IMG/VR virus record: IMGVR_UViG_2698536687_000001
Source of the DNA: a virus
Lineage: Duplodnaviria; Heunggongvirae; Uroviricota; Caudoviricetes
DNA: 64,000 bases
Reading direction: 5' to 3' (one strand)
Made by a program: the position numbers and the translations under genes. Below, one piece after another: positions 1,622 through 52,380 of this stretch (positions are counted from its first letter, which is position 1; each line of letters opens with the position of its first letter). Below the pieces are notes generated by a model, which saw nothing but the letters and a program-made list of their open reading frames with translations, searched no databases and had not been told where the DNA came from.

Positions 1622-2473
1622 ATGATAAATTATGTCTACGGCGAACAACTGTACCAGGAGTTCGTCAGCTTCAGGGATCTCTTTCTAAAAAAAGCTGTTG
1701 CACGCGCCCAACACGTTGATACAGCCAGCGACGGTCGTCCTGTACGCCCGGTTGTCGTTCTACCGTTCAAAGAAACTGACAGCATTCAGGCTGAAATTGA
1801 TAAATGGACTTTAATGGCGCGGGAACTGGAACAGTACCCAGACCTCAATATCCCAAAGACTATTTTATATCCAGTGCCTAACATCCTTCGCGGTGTGCGC
1901 AAGGTTACAACTTATCAGACAGAAGCTGTGAACAGCGTCAACATGACCGCTGGCCGCATTATTCATCTGATTGATAAGGACATTCGCATCCAAAAAAGCG
2001 CGGGGATCAATGAGCACAGTGCGAAATACATAGAGAACCTGGAAGCAACAAAAGAGCTAATGAGGCAGTACCCGGAGGATGAAAAATTCCGTATGCGCGT
2101 ACACGGCTTTAGCGAAACAATGCTGCGCGTCCACTACATTTCCAGTAGCCCTAACTACAATGATGGTAAATCAGTTAGTTACCATGTGCCACTGTGTGGC
2201 GTGTTTATCTGCGATGAAACTCTCCGTGATGGAATTATCATCAACGGTGAATTCGAAAAAGCAAAATTTAGCCTTTATGACTCCATAGAACCGATCATCT
2301 GCGACCGCTGGCCGCAAGCAAAAATATATCGCCTGGCAGATATTGAAAATGTAAAAAAACAAATTGCCATCACTCGCGAAGAGAAAAAGGTTAAGTCAGC
2401 CGCATCAGTTACGCGCAGCCGTAAAACCAAGAAGGGGCAGCCAGTAAACGACAACCCCGAAAGCGCGCAATAA
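1622..2473 (+). CDS. c1: C1 master repressor of lysogeny, 283 aa
   Basis: 283-aa ORF with strong RBS GGAGGAGG; sequence MINYVYGEQLYQEFVSFRDLFLKK... recognised from memory as P1 C1; many C1 operator-like 17-mers across the window. Confidence 0.88.
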   Translation: MINYVYGEQLYQEFVSFRDLFLKKAVARAQHVDTASDGRPVRPVVVLPFKETDSIQAEIDKWTLMARELEQYPDLNIPKTILYPVPNILRGVRKVTTYQTEAVNSVNMTAGRIIHLIDKDIRIQKSAGINEHSAKYIENLEATKELMRQYPEDEKFRMRVHGFSETMLRVHYISSSPNYNDGKSVSYHVPLCGVFICDETLRDGIIINGEFEKAKFSLYDSIEPIICDRWPQAKIYRLADIENVKKQIAITREEKKVKSAASVTRSRKTKKGQPVNDNPESAQ

Positions 2474-2482
2474 ATTATGCCC

Positions 2483-2748
2483 NNNNNNNNNNNNNNNNNN
2501 NNNNNNNNNNNNNNNNNNNNNNNNNNNNNNNNNNNNNNNNNNNNNNNNNNNNNNNNNNNNNNNNNNNNNNNNNNNNNNNNNNNNNNNNNNNNNNNNNNNN
2601 NNNNNNNNNNNNNNNNNNNNNNNNNNNNNNNNNNNNNNNNNNNNNNNNNNNNNNNNNNNNNNNNNNNNNNNNNNNNNNNNNNNNNNNNNNNNNNNNNNNN
2701 NNNNNNNNNNNNNNNNNNNNNNNNNNNNNNNNNNNNNNNNNNNNNNNN
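2483..2748. other. Assembly gap (266 N)
   Basis: Run of n characters; flanked on both sides by sequence that is repeated 1.8 kb downstream. Confidence 1.
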
Positions 2749-3427
2749 CCGGTTGCTGTTCTTTTTGTCGGAAGTAGCTGTCTTCCAGTTTTTCAAAGAA
2801 TGCCCATGCCTGATCGGTTTCGAGCATTTTAGCGTGACGGGCAGCTCCTCGTTCTGTCCAGAGGATGAGAGAGCGCGCTTTGGGGGAGACTGGATTTTGT
2901 GAGTAGTTTAAAGCTACCCGCAAATTTTTCAGCTCATCGCCAATAACCTTGAAAAAGTGCTTCGCTTCAACAAAGCGTACTTTGTTCTCATGATGATTCT
3001 GGCGAATGCGAATCGCTTCTGTACCATACCCCTTAGCAAGAGTTTCGGTTGTTACGACACGCACTCCCTGCCACTCCAGAACGGGAATTTCATCCGGCTG
3101 ATTCTGAACAACCACCAGTTCCGATTCCTGAACTGAAGGTGCATAAATTTTTTCTGATTTAACGTTAGTTGCTTTCATTCTGTGTGCCTCCTTGCGTGCT
3201 TCGGCTGCGACGGTTGCGTAATTCAGATGACCCTGTTCGAGCAGGTATTCACGGATATCGGTTAGCAGAATGCGGTGAACCGCGTTTTTGTCCTTTCTCC
3301 GGTAAAGTTGTTTGGTGATCATGAAGTAGTTGGCAATAACGCCAGGTATATCCCTGGTACTGATACAGGCAGTGTGCTGTTCAATTGCCTCGATCATCTC
3401 TTCACGGGTAACTAACGATGTTCTCAT
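2749..3427 (-). CDS. Antirepressor-like protein, copy A, N-terminal 226 aa only; 3-prime part lost in gap
   Basis: ORF runs into the N-run; first 133 aa identical to copy B (4145-5257), central segment diverged. Confidence 0.6.
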
Positions 3428-3645
3428 AGTCCCTCCTGAGCAGAAGCGTTAACAGGGAGGCACCAGTAACTGAGAGAATTGCGTGAATCAGTGGAAAAAC
3501 GGGCAGAGAAAATACATGGGGCGTCAGGAAGCTGAGAACGGGCCTCATCTTCTGTCGGTGCAATAACGAAATGATAGTGACGTTTTTGGCAGGAGTAAAA
3601 GCGCCAGATAAATTCAGGATGAATTGGGGTAGGGACAGTAGCCAT
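3424..3645 (-). CDS. Icd-like small protein (host cell division inhibitor family), 73 aa, copy A
   Basis: 73-aa ORF with RBS AAGGAGG, overlapping start of downstream ant-like gene by 4 nt; three paralogs in window each upstream of an ant-like gene; family assignment from memory. Confidence 0.55.
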   Translation of the reverse strand: MATVPTPIHPEFIWRFYSCQKRHYHFVIAPTEDEARSQLPDAPCIFSARFSTDSRNSLSYWCLPVNASAQEGL

Positions 3646-3830
3646 AATGGCAGCCTCCTTTGACTAAGTTAAGGAGCTACCGCGTGAGGTCTCAATCTCA
3701 ATGGCGGTAGCACTGACTGGGTTGAGACTACCGGCGTCAAAGGGAACCGGCCTGCCTTTCGGCAGCCCAGCCAGCACTACCATTGATTTCGGAGCTAAAC
3801 GCTACGTATGGCTGTGCGATGGCATGACAC

Positions 3831-3975
3831 AAAAAAAGACGCTTTCGGCGTCTGTGTCGCCTTTGACATTATCCGGGGTCTCAATCCCGGCACCCGTTTT
3901 AATGAGGTGCCTGATAAGCATAAACCGAAAATGCCTCAAGGCGCAAGAGGTCAGGTTCAATGTAGCATCGGTAGT
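3831..3975 (-). ncRNA. Candidate C4-like antisense RNA (immI-type), copy A
   Basis: Lies between operator 3985-4001 and an intrinsic terminator (minus-strand hairpin AGACGC-CGAAA-GCGUCU at 3838-3853 followed by U7); contains hairpin CCGGG-AUUGAGAC-CCCGG whose loop is complementary to GUCUCAA at plus 3721-3728 in the icd leader. Confidence 0.4.
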
Positions 3976-3984
3976 TAAAAAACA

Positions 3985-4001
3985 CAATTTATTAGAGCAA
4001 G
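3985..4001 (-). promoter_or_regulatory. C1 operator-like 17-mer upstream of immI-like cassette A
   Basis: CAATTTATTAGAGCAAG, 2 mismatches to reverse-complement consensus. Confidence 0.6.
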
Positions 4002-4144
4002 TTTTTACTCATTAAGCCATGCCAGAGCTTCATCAACCTGCGCTTCGTCTTCGGCGCTAAGCACTTCATCCTGGGGAACATAATCCGCCAGCATAGCGAA
4101 ACCGCGCAATAAATTATGCCCGGCATCAACCGGGCATTCTTCCA

Positions 4145-5257
4145 TTATTCAGCCGCCACCGGTTTTAACAAGCCAGCATCGAGCAGTTTACGCGTCAACC
4201 ACTGCTGGCCTTTACCCGTTAATTGAGGCGTCAACCGTATCTGGTAGCCATCTTCATCATCCAGCACCACTTCTTTCACCGTGAAATACCCCGCGTTGAT
4301 GTACTGCTGGAACGGCACATTTTTACGTCCACCGGACGCTATCAGGATGCCGTTCTCCCGTAACCAGGCAAACAGCGCGTTTTGCTTAAGTCCAACAACC
4401 TTTGCAAAATTCCCAATCAGGATCCCTTTAGCTACTGATACCCGGTCGGCAAAATCGACTTTAGGAGCGGCGGCCACCAGCTGCTGATTTAGCTGGTGGG
4501 CTTTCTGTTCCAGAAGCTGCTTTTGTTCAGCCAGTTCGGCAGCCAGGCGCAGAGCTTCTGGAAGCGTCTGGGGGATTGCAACCGGTTGCTGTTCTTTTTG
4601 CCGGAAGTAGCTGTCTTCCAGTTTTTCAAAGAATGCCCATGCTTCATTTGTGTCCACGATCTTAGACATGCGTGCAGCGCCGCGCTCTGTCCAGAGTGTA
4701 AGGCTTCTGGCGTTCTTACCAACAGAGTAACTTCCGGTTACTCTGTTCTTAAATTCTCTTAATTTTAAACCAGTTAGAAGAAAGTAATGCTTACCTTCTT
4801 CAAAGCGGTCAAGGTTGCGAGACAAATTGTTGCGAATATTGGCTTCATCGACCCCATACCCTCTAGCAAGAGTTTCGGTTGTCACGACACGTACTCCCTG
4901 CCATTCCAGAACGGGAATTTCATCCGGCTGATTCTGAACAACCACCAGTTCCGATTCCTGAACTGAAGGTGCATAAATTTTTTCTGATTTAACGTTAGTT
5001 GCTTTCATTCTGTGTGCCTCCTTGCGTGCTTCGGCTGCGACGGTTGCGTAATTCAGATGACCCTGTTCGAGCAGGTATTCACGGATATCGGTTAGCAGAA
5101 TGCGGTGAACCGCGTTTTTGTCCTTTCTCCGGTAAAGTTGTTTGGTGATCATGAAGTAGTTGGCAATAACGCCCGGTATATCCCTGGTACTGATACAGGC
5201 AGTGTGCTGTTCAATTGCCTCGATCATCTCTTCACGGGTGACTAATGACGTTCTCAT
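4145..5257 (-). CDS. Antirepressor-like protein, copy B, 370 aa (N-terminal regulatory domain plus C-terminal KilAC/ANT-like domain)
   Basis: C-terminal segment [18 protein letters not shown]...PKVDFADRV...GYFTVKEV resembles phage antirepressor KilAC domain from memory; paralogs at 2749-3427, 49829-50629, 50794-51831. Confidence 0.65.
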
Positions 5258-5475
5258 AGTCCCTCCTGAGCAGAAGCGTTAACAGGGAGGCACCAGTAAC
5301 TGAGAGAATTGCGCGAATCGGTAGAAAAGCGGGCAGAGAAAATACAGGGAGCATCCGGAAGCTGAGAACGTGCCTCATCTTCTGTCGGTGCAATAACGAA
5401 GTGATAGTGACGTTTTTGGCAGGAGTAAAAGCGCCAGATAAATTCAGGATGAGCAGGGGTAGGGATAGTAGCCAC
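5254..5475 (-). CDS. Icd-like small protein, 73 aa, copy B
   Basis: Differs from copy A at 2 residues; same operon arrangement. Confidence 0.55.
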   Translation of the reverse strand: MATIPTPAHPEFIWRFYSCQKRHYHFVIAPTEDEARSQLPDAPCIFSARFSTDSRNSLSYWCLPVNASAQEGL

Positions 5476-5660
5476 AATGGCAGCCTCCTTTTGCTAATTT
5501 AAGGAGCTACCGCGTGAGGTCTCAATCTCAATGGCGGTAGCACTGACTGGGTTGAGACTACCGGCGCAAAAGGGAACCGGCCTGCCTTTCGGCAGCCCAG
5601 CCAGCACTACCATTGATCTCTGAGCTAAACGCTACGTATGGCTGTGCGATGGCATGACAC

Positions 5661-5805
5661 AAAAAAAGACGCTTTTGGCGTCTGTGTCGCCTTTTGCATT
5701 ATCCGGGGTCTCAATCCCGGCACCCGTTTTACTGAGGTGCCTGATAAGCATAAACCGAAAATGCCTCAAGGCGCAAGAGGTCAGGTTCAATGTAACATCG
5801 GTAGT
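5661..5805 (-). ncRNA. Candidate C4-like antisense RNA, copy B
   Basis: Same architecture as copy A: operator 5815-5831, CCGGGAUUGAGACCCCGG hairpin (plus 5703-5720), terminator hairpin 5668-5682 plus U-run. Confidence 0.4.
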
Positions 5806-5814
5806 TAAAAAACA

Positions 5815-5831
5815 CAATTTATTAGAGCAAA
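5815..5831 (-). promoter_or_regulatory. C1 operator-like 17-mer upstream of immI-like cassette B
   Basis: CAATTTATTAGAGCAAA, 2 mismatches. Confidence 0.6.
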
Positions 5832-5834
5832 TAT

Positions 5835-7319
5835 TCATTCATTAAGCCATGCCAGAGCTTCATCAACCTGCGCTTCGTCTTCGACGCTAAGCACTTCGTC
5901 CTGGGGAACATAATCCGCCAGCATAGCGAAACAATATGTATCCCAATGGTCTGGTGAGTGCAGGTTGAGTTTTTTCTTCATATCCTCCTTACTCATCACC
6001 TTCCATTGACCTGCGGAGTTAATCCCTACAGGGATTTTCGACGCTTCCTCAATAGTTTCATTACCCTTATCCAGTCTCATACGACCAGATTTTACGGCCT
6101 CTGCGGCTTGAACGTTGGCATAAGCACGTTTATCAAAGTACAGGCTCTTATCTTCACGGCTATGCATCTTTTTACCCCAGCGTATACGCTGTACGGTAAT
6201 ACCATAATACTCGTACATCAGATCCGCCGTTGCTTTACCCAGGCCATCGCCGTCTATCGCTATGGTGATATTGGGGAATCGCTCAGGATTACATTCTGCG
6301 AAAATTTTGGCGGCAAGCTGCGTTTCTGTAACGTCTGTGTATTCCAGCATTCGATAGTTGATTACACGGCGTTTATTTCGCTGGCCGGACACCATCATGA
6401 TATTGATAACGGACTTATCCCGTCCCGTACCACCAGCAACGTCCACACATGCAAGCCAGCCCCATCCTTTTGCAATCTTGACTTTCCGCCGCGTTGCACG
6501 TTCAACCTCATCACGTCCAAGAAGGAAGCCATCCTGTGATTTAGGGAATAGGCCGCGTACCTTAATCATGTACATAGGGTTATCACGCCCGCCGTACTCC
6601 GCCAGCTTCATTTTGATAAATGCTGGCGTTACCAACGGTGATTCCTCACTGTTAAGCGTGATCGCCGTATAAACGCCATCAGGGTTACCAGGACGCTTGG
6701 CCAGTTTATGGTGTGTATCGTAGAAATAGCCGCTTGGGCGTGTAGGCTGTGACAGCAATAAGATGCGGTTATCCTGTCCGGTAAGAGCACCGGTGATGAT
6801 ACCGAAAGCTCTATCACTGACACCGGAGGCTTCATCGATAATATACAGAAGATGATCTGCGTGTTCACCGGCGAGAGCTTCTTCACTTCCCAGACGAAAG
6901 CCCTTCGGTACTACAGTCCATACACCTTTACCAGTAACCTCATAGAAAGCGGTTTCTGTCAGAACAAAATAATCAGCAAGCCATGGAAAACGGCTGGTGG
7001 CAGTAGCCCAGTTTATCTTGATGTACTTGAATATACCGGTCATTACCTGCTGAATTTTGTTCGCAACGATAATGGCTCGGGCACCGGGATACATGATTAT
7101 GAACAACATGATCATGATAGAAGTCATGTCTGATTTCCCGGTACCGTGACCAGACGAAACAGATGTCTTGCTACCCTGTTCCTGCACAGACTCAATAATC
7201 AGATCCTGCTGCCAGGTAGGTGTTTTGCCGAACAAAACATCAGCGGCCGCAATCCAGTCATAACGATATAGCGCCACCAGCTCGCGCCAACGTGGATCCG
7301 TTACGCAACTTCTGGCCAT
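5835..7319 (-). CDS. pacB: Terminase large subunit PacB-like, 494 aa
   Basis: 494-aa ORF whose start overlaps pacA stop by 1 nt (ATGA); position downstream of pac-containing pacA; size matches P1 PacB as recalled. Confidence 0.8.
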
Positions 7320-8512: not shown

Positions 8513-8597
8513 TTATGCTTCCTTTCGTAAAAACTCTTTTTGACGCGAGGGTAACGAAAGTCACATGTCAAAAGGCCCGGAACGGGCAAGCAATCAA

Positions 8598-9050
8598 TCA
8601 GATACGTACGGATGTGGCATTACCGTAATGACGGTGCTGACGGGCTACCTTATTGAAAAGTTGACGCGCCATTACCCAAGGCTGGTGTTCCCGGCGTTCC
8701 TTTTCGTCCTGCGTCATATAGAGTTCGTTCTGGAGTTTTTCATCAAACCGGCGCGGCGCGCGGCTGCGGCGAAAGAATTCAGGATTCAGAGAGTGGATCT
8801 GAAATCTACGTGGGCGTGTACTGTCATCAATCAAAACAGACGAATACTTAGACACAGCGATAGCCTTTAAGCGCAGATAAACGTCGCGCTTATCGACATC
8901 CAGATGCGGGTATTCCTTTTCAAGGATTGCTGCGAGTTCTTTCGCTGATAGAAGAGATTTGGTGCGGATCATGTAATCCGCAATCTCATACGATGTTATT
9001 CGTAAGTGATTTATTTCCATGAAGTGGCGTCCCTGCCAGTTAAGTAACAT
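8598..9050 (-). CDS. lpa: Late promoter activator Lpa-like, 150 aa
   Basis: 150-aa ORF immediately upstream of pacA and preceded by a C1 operator-like site, as for P1 lpa. Confidence 0.7.
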   Translation of the reverse strand: MLLNWQGRHFMEINHLRITSYEIADYMIRTKSLLSAKELAAILEKEYPHLDVDKRDVYLRLKAIAVSKYSSVLIDDSTRPRRFQIHSLNPEFFRRSRAPRRFDEKLQNELYMTQDEKERREHQPWVMARQLFNKVARQHRHYGNATSVRI

Positions 9051-50793: not shown

Positions 50794-51831
50794 TTAACCT
50801 ATTGCTACTGGTTTTAACAAACCAGCATCAAGTAGCTTGCGAGTTAACCACTGCTGGCCTTTACCCGTTAATTGGGGCGTCAGCCGTATCTGGTAGCCAT
50901 TTTCATCATCCAGCACCACTTCTTTCACCGTGAAATACCCGGCGTTAATGTACTGCTGGCGCGGTACGTTTTTGCGCGCACCAAAAGCCATGAGAATGCC
51001 GTTCTGGCGCAACCATGAGAAAAGGGCGTTTTGCTTAAGTCCAACGACCTTTGCAAAGTTACCGATCAGGATTCCATTAGCCACTGATACCCGGTCGGCA
51101 AAATCGACTTTAGGTGCTGCGGCCACCAGCTGTTGTTCCAGATGCATTTTCTGTTCTGCCAACTCGGCAGCCAGGCGTAGGGCTTCTGGTAATGTTTGGG
51201 GGATCGATGGGGTAGGGGAGTTTGCCTGCTGCAATTCTTCCAGTTTGTCGATCAGCGAACGGCGGACAGCTTTTGATTCGCGCGCGGCGACTCGCAGGGC
51301 TTGTTTGTAGGTCATGGTTATGACAAGCATTGATGTTTTGTTCATTTTTTCCACTACACTTTTTGTGTAGTGCTCACCATCAAGCTCATCGAGTATTTTT
51401 TCGATGAATTTGTTGTTCCGAACCTCTGGTTCCCCACATAACTTACGCGCTTCATTGACCATCTTTAACAGTGTCTGGCTGTCGATTGTGTCTCCAGTGT
51501 TGGAGATAACATTCACAGTTGGTGATGGCGTAGCTAAAGCAACAGGTGCTGGTTTTTCAACATTCAAATTATTACCGGTCATTCTGCGCGCCTCCTTTCT
51601 CATTTCTGCTGCCACCGTTGCGTAACGTAGACGTCCTTGTTCAATCAAATAATCCCTGATCTCGGCTATCAGTAGCCTGTTGATCACAGCCTTATCTGTT
51701 CGGGTATAAAAACGCCTGGTTATCATGAAATAGTTGGCAATTGCGCCGGGGATCTCCCGTGTCGGCATACAGGCAGTATGCAGGGCGATCGCTTCGGCTA
51801 TGTCATTACGGGTGACGAGAGGTTTTTTCAT
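50794..51831 (-). CDS. Antirepressor Ant-like protein, 345 aa
   Basis: KilAC/ANT-type C-terminus nearly identical to copy B; preceded by icd-like ORF and c4-like region. Confidence 0.65.
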   Translation of the reverse strand: MKKPLVTRNDIAEAIALHTACMPTREIPGAIANYFMITRRFYTRTDKAVINRLLIAEIRDYLIEQGRLRYATVAAEMRKEARRMTGNNLNVEKPAPVALATPSPTVNVISNTGDTIDSQTLLKMVNEARKLCGEPEVRNNKFIEKILDELDGEHYTKSVVEKMNKTSMLVITMTYKQALRVAARESKAVRRSLIDKLEELQQANSPTPSIPQTLPEALRLAAELAEQKMHLEQQLVAAAPKVDFADRVSVANGILIGNFAKVVGLKQNALFSWLRQNGILMAFGARKNVPRQQYINAGYFTVKEVVLDDENGYQIRLTPQLTGKGQQWLTRKLLDAGLLKPVAIG

Positions 51832-52049
51832 AAAACCTCCTGAACGTCGGCAGAGAAGGGGAGGTTCCAGTAACTAAGTGAATTGCGCGAGTTAGTTGAA
51901 AAACGGGCAGTAAAAATGCAGGGGCCATCAGGCAATTGAGAGCGTGCTTCGTCTTCAGTTGCTGCGATAACGAAGTGATAGTGGTGTTTTTTACAGGAAT
52001 AGAAACGCCAGATGAATTCTTGGCGTGCGCAAGGATTGGCATTAACCAT
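51828..52049 (-). CDS. Icd-like small protein, 73 aa, copy C
   Basis: Paralog of 3424-3645 (shared EFIWRFYSC...HYHFVIA...TEDEARSQLPD); overlaps ant start by 4 nt. Confidence 0.55.
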   Translation of the reverse strand: MVNANPCARQEFIWRFYSCKKHHYHFVIAATEDEARSQLPDGPCIFTARFSTNSRNSLSYWNLPFSADVQEVL

Positions 52050-52206
52050 AGTTACGGCCTCACAATCAGGTTTAACAACCTGCTACCCGCTGCTAAACAG
52101 GTGGCAGGACGTGACGGGGTTAGCAGACTGGCGATTGTGAAACCAGCAGGCCGAAGCCTCCCCATCACGCCCCACCATAATTTGGGCGTAACGCGGTTTT
52201 ACGGAC

Positions 52207-52355
52207 ACAAAAATACCGCAATATCGGATATCTGCGGCTGTCCGCACAATCATTCAGGCTGCTAAACCCGGTCGCAGAATTTGCTACGACGGCGGAACTA
52301 TAAGCCTGAACGATTAAAAGGTCAATATGATGCGAAAAGATAGCATTCGTGACTT
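52207..52355 (-). ncRNA. Candidate C4-like antisense RNA, copy C
   Basis: Between operator 52364-52380 and a hairpin plus U-run (plus 52207-52237); repeated GUUUAGCAGC motif on the minus-strand RNA. Confidence 0.3.
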
Positions 52356-52363
52356 AAAAATAC

Positions 52364-52380
52364 AAATTTATTAGAGCAGA
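52364..52380 (-). promoter_or_regulatory. C1 operator-like site upstream of immI-like cassette C
   Basis: AAATTTATTAGAGCAGA, 2 mismatches. Confidence 0.6.

Follow-up and report, generated by a model that had tools for sequence, protein, structure and literature searches.

The closest described relatives of the locus studied here are the immI region of phages P1 and P7, the antirepressor insertion of RCS47 and related plasmids, and the Gifsy-1 isrK-orf45-anrP locus of Salmonella. For P1, the roles of C1, C4, Icd and Ant have been described, and the heteroimmunity of P1 and P7 comes from minor differences in immI (PMC8201110; PMC6906374), while immunity by antisense RNA at immI is the subject of Citron & Schuster 1990, Riedel et al. 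1993 and Heisig et al. 1989 (as cited in PMC8201110). Venturini et al. 2019 (PMC6906374) reported two short open reading frames (ORFs) and an ant gene inserted between pacB and c1 in pTZ20_1P, “as in RCS47”. In Gifsy-1, translation of the antirepressor depends on a small upstream ORF (Hershko-Shalev et al. 2016, PMC4825925), and the mechanism is activation in trans by a short IsrK (PMC4825925). Here we analyzed a stretch of 64,000 nucleotides (the window) from the IMG/VR virus record IMGVR_UViG_2698536687_000001, which covers most of a P1-type phage-plasmid of Escherichia coli G27, a strain from Belgium (scaffold LOOY01000014.1, 92,570 bp, draft assembly GCA_001576035.1) and in which two immI-like cassettes stand in tandem between c1 and pacB.

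The tandem beside c1 probably consists of two natural alleles of a known antisense-RNA-controlled antirepressor cassette, placed side by side in one phage-plasmid. From the sequence, we put the probability of a real heteroallelic tandem duplication at roughly 60%. The single cassette between c1 and pacB is known already; the new elements here are the tandem state and its junction, which were found in the source scaffold only, and the arrangement is probably a strain-specific rearrangement of a common, known cassette.

The c1-pacB interval and its two cassettes

Between the convergent genes c1 (1622-2473) and pacB (5835-7319) lie two units of 1,830 bp in direct tandem, cassette A next to c1 and cassette B next to pacB. 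Both units have the same parts: C1 operator-like site, isrK-like leader, C4 antisense RNA, icd-like ORF and ant gene. The features of the interval are as follows.

1622-2473, plus strand: c1 repressor gene (immC); NCBIfam phage_rep_C1 equivalog (612 bits, cut-off 500); related plasmids have it annotated as C1
2464-2482, plus strand: 19-mer closing c1, after which the gap begins; repeat R starts with the same 19 nt, and the 20-mer that ends at 2482 has no second copy
2483-2748, no strand: scaffold gap of 266 N, an N-run of the NCBI record LOOY01000014.1 that stands for the interior of repeat R
2749-3427, minus strand: ant allele A, visible 5' part of 226 codons; conserved N-terminus and Pfam ORF6N (1.4e-19)
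3424-3645, minus strand: icd-like ORF of cassette A, 73 aa; NCBIfam phage_ICD_like (NF033153), 49.8 bits against a cut-off of 25
3657-3695, minus strand: a2/b2 target sites of cassette A; a2 at 3689-3695 (UUGAGAC), b2 at 3657-3664 (GUCAAAGG)
3700-3787, minus strand: C4 antisense RNA of cassette A; Rfam RF01695, full length, 75.4 bits with a gathering score of 45; a' at 3722-3728 (GUCUCAA), b' loop at 3736-3743 (CCUUUGAC)
3832-3910, minus strand: isrK-like leader of cassette A; Rfam RF01394 (60.2 bits, gathering score 50); a1 at 3878-3884, b1 at 3860-3867, intrinsic terminator at 3837-3853 (terminator scan)
3985-4001, minus strand: C1 operator-like site at the head of cassette A, 15/17 match to ATTGCTCTAATAAATTT
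4005-4102, minus strand: pacB' fragment attached to cassette A, the tail of a pacB gene (32 codons and the stop)
4005-4145, minus strand: chimeric ORF of 46 aa across the junction; it starts at an ATG that overlaps the stop of antB and ends with 32 residues of the PacB C-terminus
4097-4108, no strand: novel junction at 4102/4103, pacB ...GCGAAAC / CGCGCAAT... c1
4103-4600, no strand: repeat R, 498 bp, placed copy; c1' 19-mer, shared c1/ant terminator hairpin (4116-4137) and ant 3' part
4145-5257, minus strand: ant allele B, 370 aa; conserved N-terminus, Pfam ORF6N (2.4e-18) and ANT/KilAC (PF03374, 1.5e-31)
5254-5475, minus strand: icd-like ORF of cassette B, 73 aa; NCBIfam phage_ICD_like, 49.8 bits
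5487-5525, minus strand: a2/b2 target sites of cassette B; a2 at 5519-5525, b2 at 5487-5494 (GCAAAAGG)
5530-5617, minus strand: C4 antisense RNA of cassette B; Rfam RF01695, 75.0 bits; b' loop at 5566-5573 (CCUUUUGC)
5662-5740, minus strand: isrK-like leader of cassette B; Rfam RF01394, 58.2 bits; a1, b1 at 5690-5697, terminator at 5667-5683
5815-5831, minus strand: C1 operator-like site at the head of cassette B, 15/17 match
5835-7319, minus strand: pacB, complete, large terminase subunit; ORF of 494 aa, annotated as pacB or terminase in P1, P7, RCS47 and plasmids

The 19-mer CGCGCAATAAATTATGCCC occurs in exactly two copies in the 64 kb, at 2464-2482 and 4103-4121, where chance would give 0. 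The pacB 3' end at 5835-5932 recurs at 4005-4102, with two mismatches (4054 and 4068) within the 92 nt of 4011-4102. Both copies are the termini of a far longer direct repeat of 1,830 bp: 3024-4102 and 4854-5932 align over 1,079 bp without a gap, at an offset of 1830, with 96.1% identity (42 mismatches). A second stretch, 2749-2863 against 4582-4696, shows 83-85% identity, and a diverged block of about 160 nt lies between the two aligned stretches. The first 19 visible nt of ant A (2749-2767) are the same as 4582-4600, and the first mismatch between A and B is at 2768.

The two Ant proteins are identical over their first 131 residues, diverge inside the ORF6N domain and have reconverged by residue 206. 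AntB has both ORF6N and KilAC; the visible part of AntA has ORF6N only, and its KilAC part would fall in the gap. In both cassettes the icd stop overlaps the ant start (icd 3424-3645 with the ant start at 3427; icd 5254-5475 with the ant start at 5257). Operator-like sites are enriched in the window (15 against 0.44 expected). A simple sigma-70 scan gave no promoter call at the cassette heads, where the 15/17 operator matches lie.

Most of this layout had been seen by the first-pass annotation. It had described two units of operator, C4-like RNA, icd-like ORF and ant-like ORF, and operator matches, Rfam, NCBIfam and Pfam find all of these in both units; its name for them, an immI-like cassette, is borne out by the C4 RNA, the complementary a1/b1 and a2/b2 sites, icd, ant and the C1 operator-like site of each unit. 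It also placed the 266-N gap where copy A should continue, and the N-run does lie at the 3' part of ant A. The rest needed correction in detail: the 19-mer at the c1 end does recur, with the second copy at 4103-4121 rather than 4100-4118; the copy of the pacB end is real, with coordinates a few bases away from those proposed; and the identical start of the ant genes measures 131 aa, not 133.

Several side observations concern the coding sequences of the interval. In both ant genes, codon 84 is an ATG that follows GGAGG (3176-3191 and 5006-5021, minus strand). The arrangement resembles the nested starts of Ant1 and Ant2 in P1, and a shorter Ant without the conserved N-terminal 83 residues may be made from it. 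In public annotation, a CDS for a 39-aa “ash family protein” lies largely over the C4 gene, with a weak Pfam Phage_ASH match (equivalents at 3744-3863 and 5574-5693 of the window; 8533-8652 and 10363-10482 of L004, from the source scaffold); this call is probably a spurious CDS on an RNA gene. The 46-aa ORF across the junction is probably meaningless as a gene, though a unique marker of the rearrangement: an exact-protein look-up found it in one contig only, LOOY01000014.1.

Junction, gap edges and a probable origin of the pair

The junction at 4102/4103 is inside contiguous, N-free sequence and brings the terminal 98 nt of pacB up against the terminal 9 nt of c1. It is non-homologous, as all other c1 ends (54/54) read CGAAAG/CGCGC and all other pacB genes (47/47) read CGAAAC/AATATG. 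A near-microhomology of 5 nt, CGAAA, stands one base off the join, and the join shares no k-mer with either parent. A gap-free novel junction that neither homology nor k-mer overlap explains is one mark of a genuine tandem duplication.

The edges of the gap point in the same direction. The left contig stops exactly 19 nt past the last base that separates c1 from pacB' (2463 vs 4102), and the right contig begins exactly 19 nt ahead of the first mismatch between A and B (2768 vs 4601). Both terminal 19-mers at the gap have exactly two copies each, and the 20-mers are unique. We infer the signature of a de Bruijn graph with k=20, in which the 498-bp repeat R can be entered from either c1 or pacB' and left towards either A or B. 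Since R needs the second entry for a break at 2482, reads containing the junction must exist; a mixture of two ordinary single-cassette plasmids would offer only one entry into R, and hence a contig without a break at 2482.

The 266-N run is thus the unplaced second copy of R from short-read assembly, not lost biology. By comparison with natural A-type plasmids the gap should hold 460 nt (the terminator and the last 145 codons of ant A), against the 266 deposited. The second N-run of the same scaffold has another length, 61 N, which indicates that gap sizes are estimates, and an underestimate would be expected where only the longest inserts bridge a gap. A database mask was ruled out as the source of the Ns, which stand in the NCBI record. 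Within the 64 kb there is only this one N-run, and no other allelic duplicates were found. The 61-N run lies outside the window (L004 19427-19487), in proline-rich repeats between a Pfam AC_1 ORF and an Autotransporter ORF; its flanks share the 16-mer ACTCCGAACCCGGACC, so it is another repeat-induced scaffold gap.

Single cassettes are common at this site. Among phages, RCS47, JL22 and vB_EcoM-673R5 contain one; P1, P7 and SJ46 have no cassette between c1 and pacB. In PLSDB, 267 plasmids have one cassette and a query coverage of at least 80%, and all IMG/VR loci with both flanks visible (50/50) have one cassette in the same layout. The exact icd-A protein occurs in 261 blocks of the public collection, and 10 of 10 among the matches listed are single cassettes between pacB and c1. 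The exact icd-A look-up gave no second assembly of the same strain, only other strains, all single-cassette among the matches listed.

Both halves of the tandem have counterparts among these single cassettes. Cassette A is 99.8% identical to those of CP116983 and CP059290, and cassette B (4122-5834) is 99.8% identical to those of CP054193 and CP057803. The natural A-type Ant (371 aa) is the same as AntA throughout the visible part (226/226 residues) and the same as AntB over its C-terminal 145 residues (145/145), so R is expected to be a repeat; the placed copy is 99.4% identical to the matching interval of the A-type plasmid CP116983. The near-identical C-terminus that had been noted for the two ant genes therefore holds by way of the natural A allele, copy A itself being in the gap beyond residue 226. 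As A and B both match standing single cassettes, two existing alleles were united and no divergence took place in situ. Domain shuffling through duplication, which the first-pass annotation had offered, does not survive this comparison, by which the “mosaic” ant genes are standing variation at the c1-pacB locus.

We propose the following origin. Two P1-like elements with alleles A and B would have met in one cell. An illegitimate crossover beside the CGAAA near-microhomology would have linked a point in pacB of the A element, 98 nt before the 3' end of that gene, with a point in c1 of the B element, 9 nt before the 3' end of c1. The dimer, once resolved by homologous recombination or by Cre/loxP, would then give the monomer c1-R-A-pacB'/c1'-R-B-pacB.

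Several results weigh against a real tandem. The junction 33-mer is absent from GTDB representatives, IMG/VR and JGI metagenomes by exact scan, BLAST gave no match running unbroken through the junction, either in PLSDB or among 5,426 complete E. coli genomes, and an exact-protein look-up of both junction-spanning ORFs in a gene-position index returned the source contig alone. The tandem pair was seen in 0 of the finished plasmids inspected, and the sole similar case, an IMG/VR contig described below, has an N at its join. The source scaffold belongs to a short-read draft assembly in which one copy of R is unsequenced, the deposited gap size of 266 differs from the expected 460, and the order c1-A-B depends on the read-pair links of the scaffolder; the assembler and its k value are our inference, being undocumented. 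Besides, a recA+ host would be expected to destabilize a direct repeat whose copies are taken to be identical over about 500 bp. The flanks also single out neither parent, the best backbone matches being only ~98%: for the left flank the best match is an A-type plasmid (99.7%), with B-type plasmids up to 99.6% (B-type flanks were compared from BLAST output only), and for the right flank the best match is ~98%.

The strongest competing explanation is an artefact of assembly or scaffolding, in which two single-cassette elements or a polymorphic plasmid population were sequenced and a “bubble” contig of allele A was misplaced beside B. Both alleles are normally single at the same locus, the record is a gapped draft scaffold, and the junction is unique to the LOOY01000014.1 assembly. 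The independent scaffold L012 (IMGVR_UViG_2698536372_000019), with tandem alleles beside pacB, a single-N join and the same CGGTTGCTGTTCTTTTTG break, indicates that this locus does yield bubble-like contigs. A bubble contig, however, would rejoin the shared pacB between Ns, whereas here an N-free run leads from pacB' to c1' with no shared k-mer, and the end of the left contig, 19 nt inside R, presupposes another way into R and hence junction k-mers in the reads. Co-resident P1-like genomes also usually differ by 1-3% throughout, yet the 64 kb contain no further bubble or gap. We consider such an artefact unlikely. Of the two options left by the first-pass annotation, a tandem duplication or concatenated alleles, the real tandem is thus the better supported, through its non-homologous contiguous junction and the 19-nt gap edges, and concatenation is disfavoured.

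Less probable still, at long odds, is a real junction in a scaffold whose order is wrong or partial. The plasmid would then read c1-R-B-pacB, with R-A-pacB' present as an excised circle of 1.83 kb, in a higher-order array or in minority molecules formed by recombination through R. Two entries and two exits of R allow two valid resolutions between which sequence alone does not choose; tandem repeats with R copies (taken as identical) are expected to recombine; and the gap-size estimate is off by ~194 nt. On the other side, the scaffolder did link c1 to cassette A, and a 1.83-kb circle without a replication function would persist only if the tandem form regenerated it, which makes this largely a sub-case of the tandem duplication. 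Duplication of a single cassette in place, after which one ant copy diverged or had its domains shuffled, would fit the collinearity of the units (exact 1830-bp offset, zero indels over 1,079 bp), but the 42 differences and the diverged ORF6N segment, with coordinated b', b1 and b2 changes among them, reproduce two alleles existing elsewhere at 99.8-100%, and since both alleles pre-exist, their independent re-creation after local duplication is not credible, so that on these alignments it is ruled out for practical purposes.

The searches also brought up other forms of the locus. L012 shares with the window a direct tandem beside pacB (locus 2119-4965), a repeated pacB 3' fragment and divergence in the ant centre, which follows 859 nt of identity between its copies; its contig end has the same CGGTTGCTGTTCTTTTTG boundary as the gap edge of the window. 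It differs in its period of 1,566 bp and in its join, which is inside ant through a single N at 3684, and the scaffold has other small N-runs. Because the join passes through this N, L012 gives no junction evidence, and it was rejected as an independent tandem. Two further C4 units of this scaffold (L077 and L082) each lie near small N-runs. In another IMG/VR contig (L069), two canonical-type units (c4-a1b1 and C4; 508-714 and 2226-2432) are inverted and ~1.6 kb apart, so that multiple C4 units per element occur in other arrangements too.

Three more candidates were set aside. One finished plasmid (H201) has two leader copies that are >7 kb apart and not tandem. Twenty PLSDB matches with “100% coverage” consist of two separate pieces inside 532 bp rather than the junction. 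An apparent duplication in Escherichia albertii (H54) has an extra 1.1 kb that is an insertion with a 395-aa ORF.

Natural variants of the site include both remnants and insertions. In 20 PLSDB records (H71-H90) and 12 complete E. coli records (H111-H122), lists that partly overlap, a KilAC ant remnant of ~370 bp lies between c1 and pacB (for instance, NZ_CP080123.1 79946-80477). It looks like a deletion derivative of the cassette without C4, icd and the 5' part of ant. Several plasmids carrying icd or the cassette in its A form are annotated with just a 110-aa KilAC ORF at the place of the expected 371-aa ant (L002 3563-3895; L086 and L091 4002-4334; L084 5525-5857), which suggests a disrupted ant in some natural plasmids. 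In the E. albertii plasmid pEA4_97 (NZ_CP117679.1; L001 4032-5126), a 1.1-kb insertion separates the operator/promoter region from the isrK-like leader and presumably uncouples the cassette from C1 control; by eye only, its 395-aa ORF resembles a transposase.

C4 specificity and the probable control of the cassettes

Each cassette has the sequence properties of an immI module: the C4 family structure, complementarity of a' and b' to targets on both sides, and the icd-ant overlap. In RNA sense, the transcript carries a1 (UUGAGAC) and b1 in the leader, then C4 with a' GUCUCAA and the b' loop, then a2/b2. In cassette A, as read off the sequence, b2 overlaps the Shine-Dalgarno sequence of icd; b2 sits over the AAGGAGG of icd, and the icd stop overlaps the ant start, from which we infer translational coupling of icd and ant.

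What is most interesting about the pair is how cleanly the two C4 units differ in specificity, with compensation in their targets. The b' of C4 differs by 2 nt between A and B (CCUUUGAC vs CCUUUUGC), b1 and b2 carry matching changes, and a' is shared. Duplex energies between b' and its targets are -12.4 to -13.4 kcal/mol for cognate pairs and -5.9 to -7.3 kcal/mol for crosses of A by B. For example, b2 of cassette A gives -12.7 kcal/mol with C4-A and -6.8 with C4-B, while b2 of cassette B gives -12.4 kcal/mol with C4-B and -6.5 with C4-A. As b' differs and b1 and b2 are compensated, each C4 should control mainly its own cassette, and A and B are probably separate immunity specificities; some cross-talk would be possible through the a' common to both.

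The same code is found in natural alleles. Targets b1/b2 match b' in all informative alleles (41/41), a2 matches a' in all scored (40/40) and a1 does so in all readable (37/37). Among the IMG/VR alleles (L005-L083), two a' types (GUCUCAA and GUUCCAA) and two b' types (UUUGAC and UUUUGC) occur in all four combinations, with matching targets, which suggests a modular a'/b' specificity code reshuffled by recombination.

The control mechanism given here is carried over from P1 immI. Transcription would start at a promoter overlapped by the C1 operator and pass through a1/b1 in a terminated leader before C4. Once released, C4 would use a' and b' to pair with a2/b2 at the ribosome-binding site of icd, and this would block translation of icd and, through the overlapping stop and start codons, of ant as well. 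On failure of C4 control, Ant would be made and would inactivate C1. In P1, C4 is said to block icd translation and hence ant, with Ant acting against C1, and the finer mechanism was reportedly worked out by Citron and Schuster in 1990 and in later work.

A further C4 unit is present elsewhere in the element, which is by its gene content a P1-type phage-plasmid with loxP, cre, coi, c1, convergent pacB and pacA, and a complete canonical immI-kilA-repL region. These features, of which pacA is also in the window, are as follows.

885-918: loxP site; cre and coi are also present
48.9-52.4 kb: canonical immI-kilA-repL region, complete
50794-52380, minus strand: canonical immI, from Rfam, ORFs and NCBIfam
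52364-52380: operator of canonical immI
52251-52303: c4-a1b1 of canonical immI
52097-52182: C4 of canonical immI
51828-52049: icd of canonical immI
50794-51831: ant of canonical immI

By duplex energies, there is no cross-pairing of C4-A or C4-B with the canonical immI targets. With A, B and the canonical immI, whose C4 specificity is a third and unrelated one, the element would express three C4 specificities.

Significance and comparison with known systems

If the tandem is real, it implies that unequal recombination with relatives can bring several specificities of antisense immunity together in one phage-plasmid. Such a pair would also serve as a natural construct for asking whether 2-nt changes in C4 b' make immunity orthogonal, as in P1 vs P7. 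We raise, as a tentative idea that is possible rather than probable, that the pair is both real and selected: the second allele would have been captured from a superinfecting relative by illegitimate recombination at a hot spot, and three orthogonal C4 RNAs would silence the antirepressors of three incoming classes of P1-like phages (“immunity stacking”), with a'/b' acting as a 2-by-2 code. The single-cassette state is common and published, which limits the wider significance. In practice, P1-like plasmids are polymorphic between c1 and pacB, short-read assemblers cope poorly with this site, and gaps or apparent duplications in it need checking before interpretation.

Compared with Gifsy-1, the cassettes share an isrK-type terminated leader running into a small ORF and an antirepressor gene, and only the leader type is common to both. 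Unlike in Gifsy-1, C4 lies between the leader and the small ORF, this ORF is Icd-like (73 aa) and not orf45, antQ is not adjacent, and the upstream neighbour is pacB or pacB'.

Another close match is the insertion of RCS47 (NC_042128) and pTZ20_1P, which has the same site, orientation and gene content (icd-like ORF, “ash” call and ant). Identity is 95.5% to RCS47 and 98.2% to JL22. The RCS47-type layout, an insertion between convergent c1 and pacB with transcription towards c1, is found here as well. The published description of RCS47 and pTZ20_1P makes no mention of the C4 RNA, its targets or the operator. In contrast to the RCS47 type, whose loci have one cassette per interval, the present locus has two tandem cassettes of different alleles and a pacB'/c1' junction.

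As in the immI of P1 and P7, there is a C4 with a'/b', a1/b1 upstream, a2/b2 downstream over the icd ribosome-binding site, an icd-ant overlap and a C1 operator-like site, and, as between P1 and P7, the specificity alleles are a few bases apart. Unlike P1/P7 immI, the c1-pacB cassettes adjoin immC instead of standing upstream of kilA-repL, have no sim genes, carry an upstream target region that scores as Rfam isrK and not c4-a1b1, and encode an Ant with an ORF6N central domain. Unlike P1 and P7 themselves, the element holds a canonical immI besides its c1-pacB cassettes.

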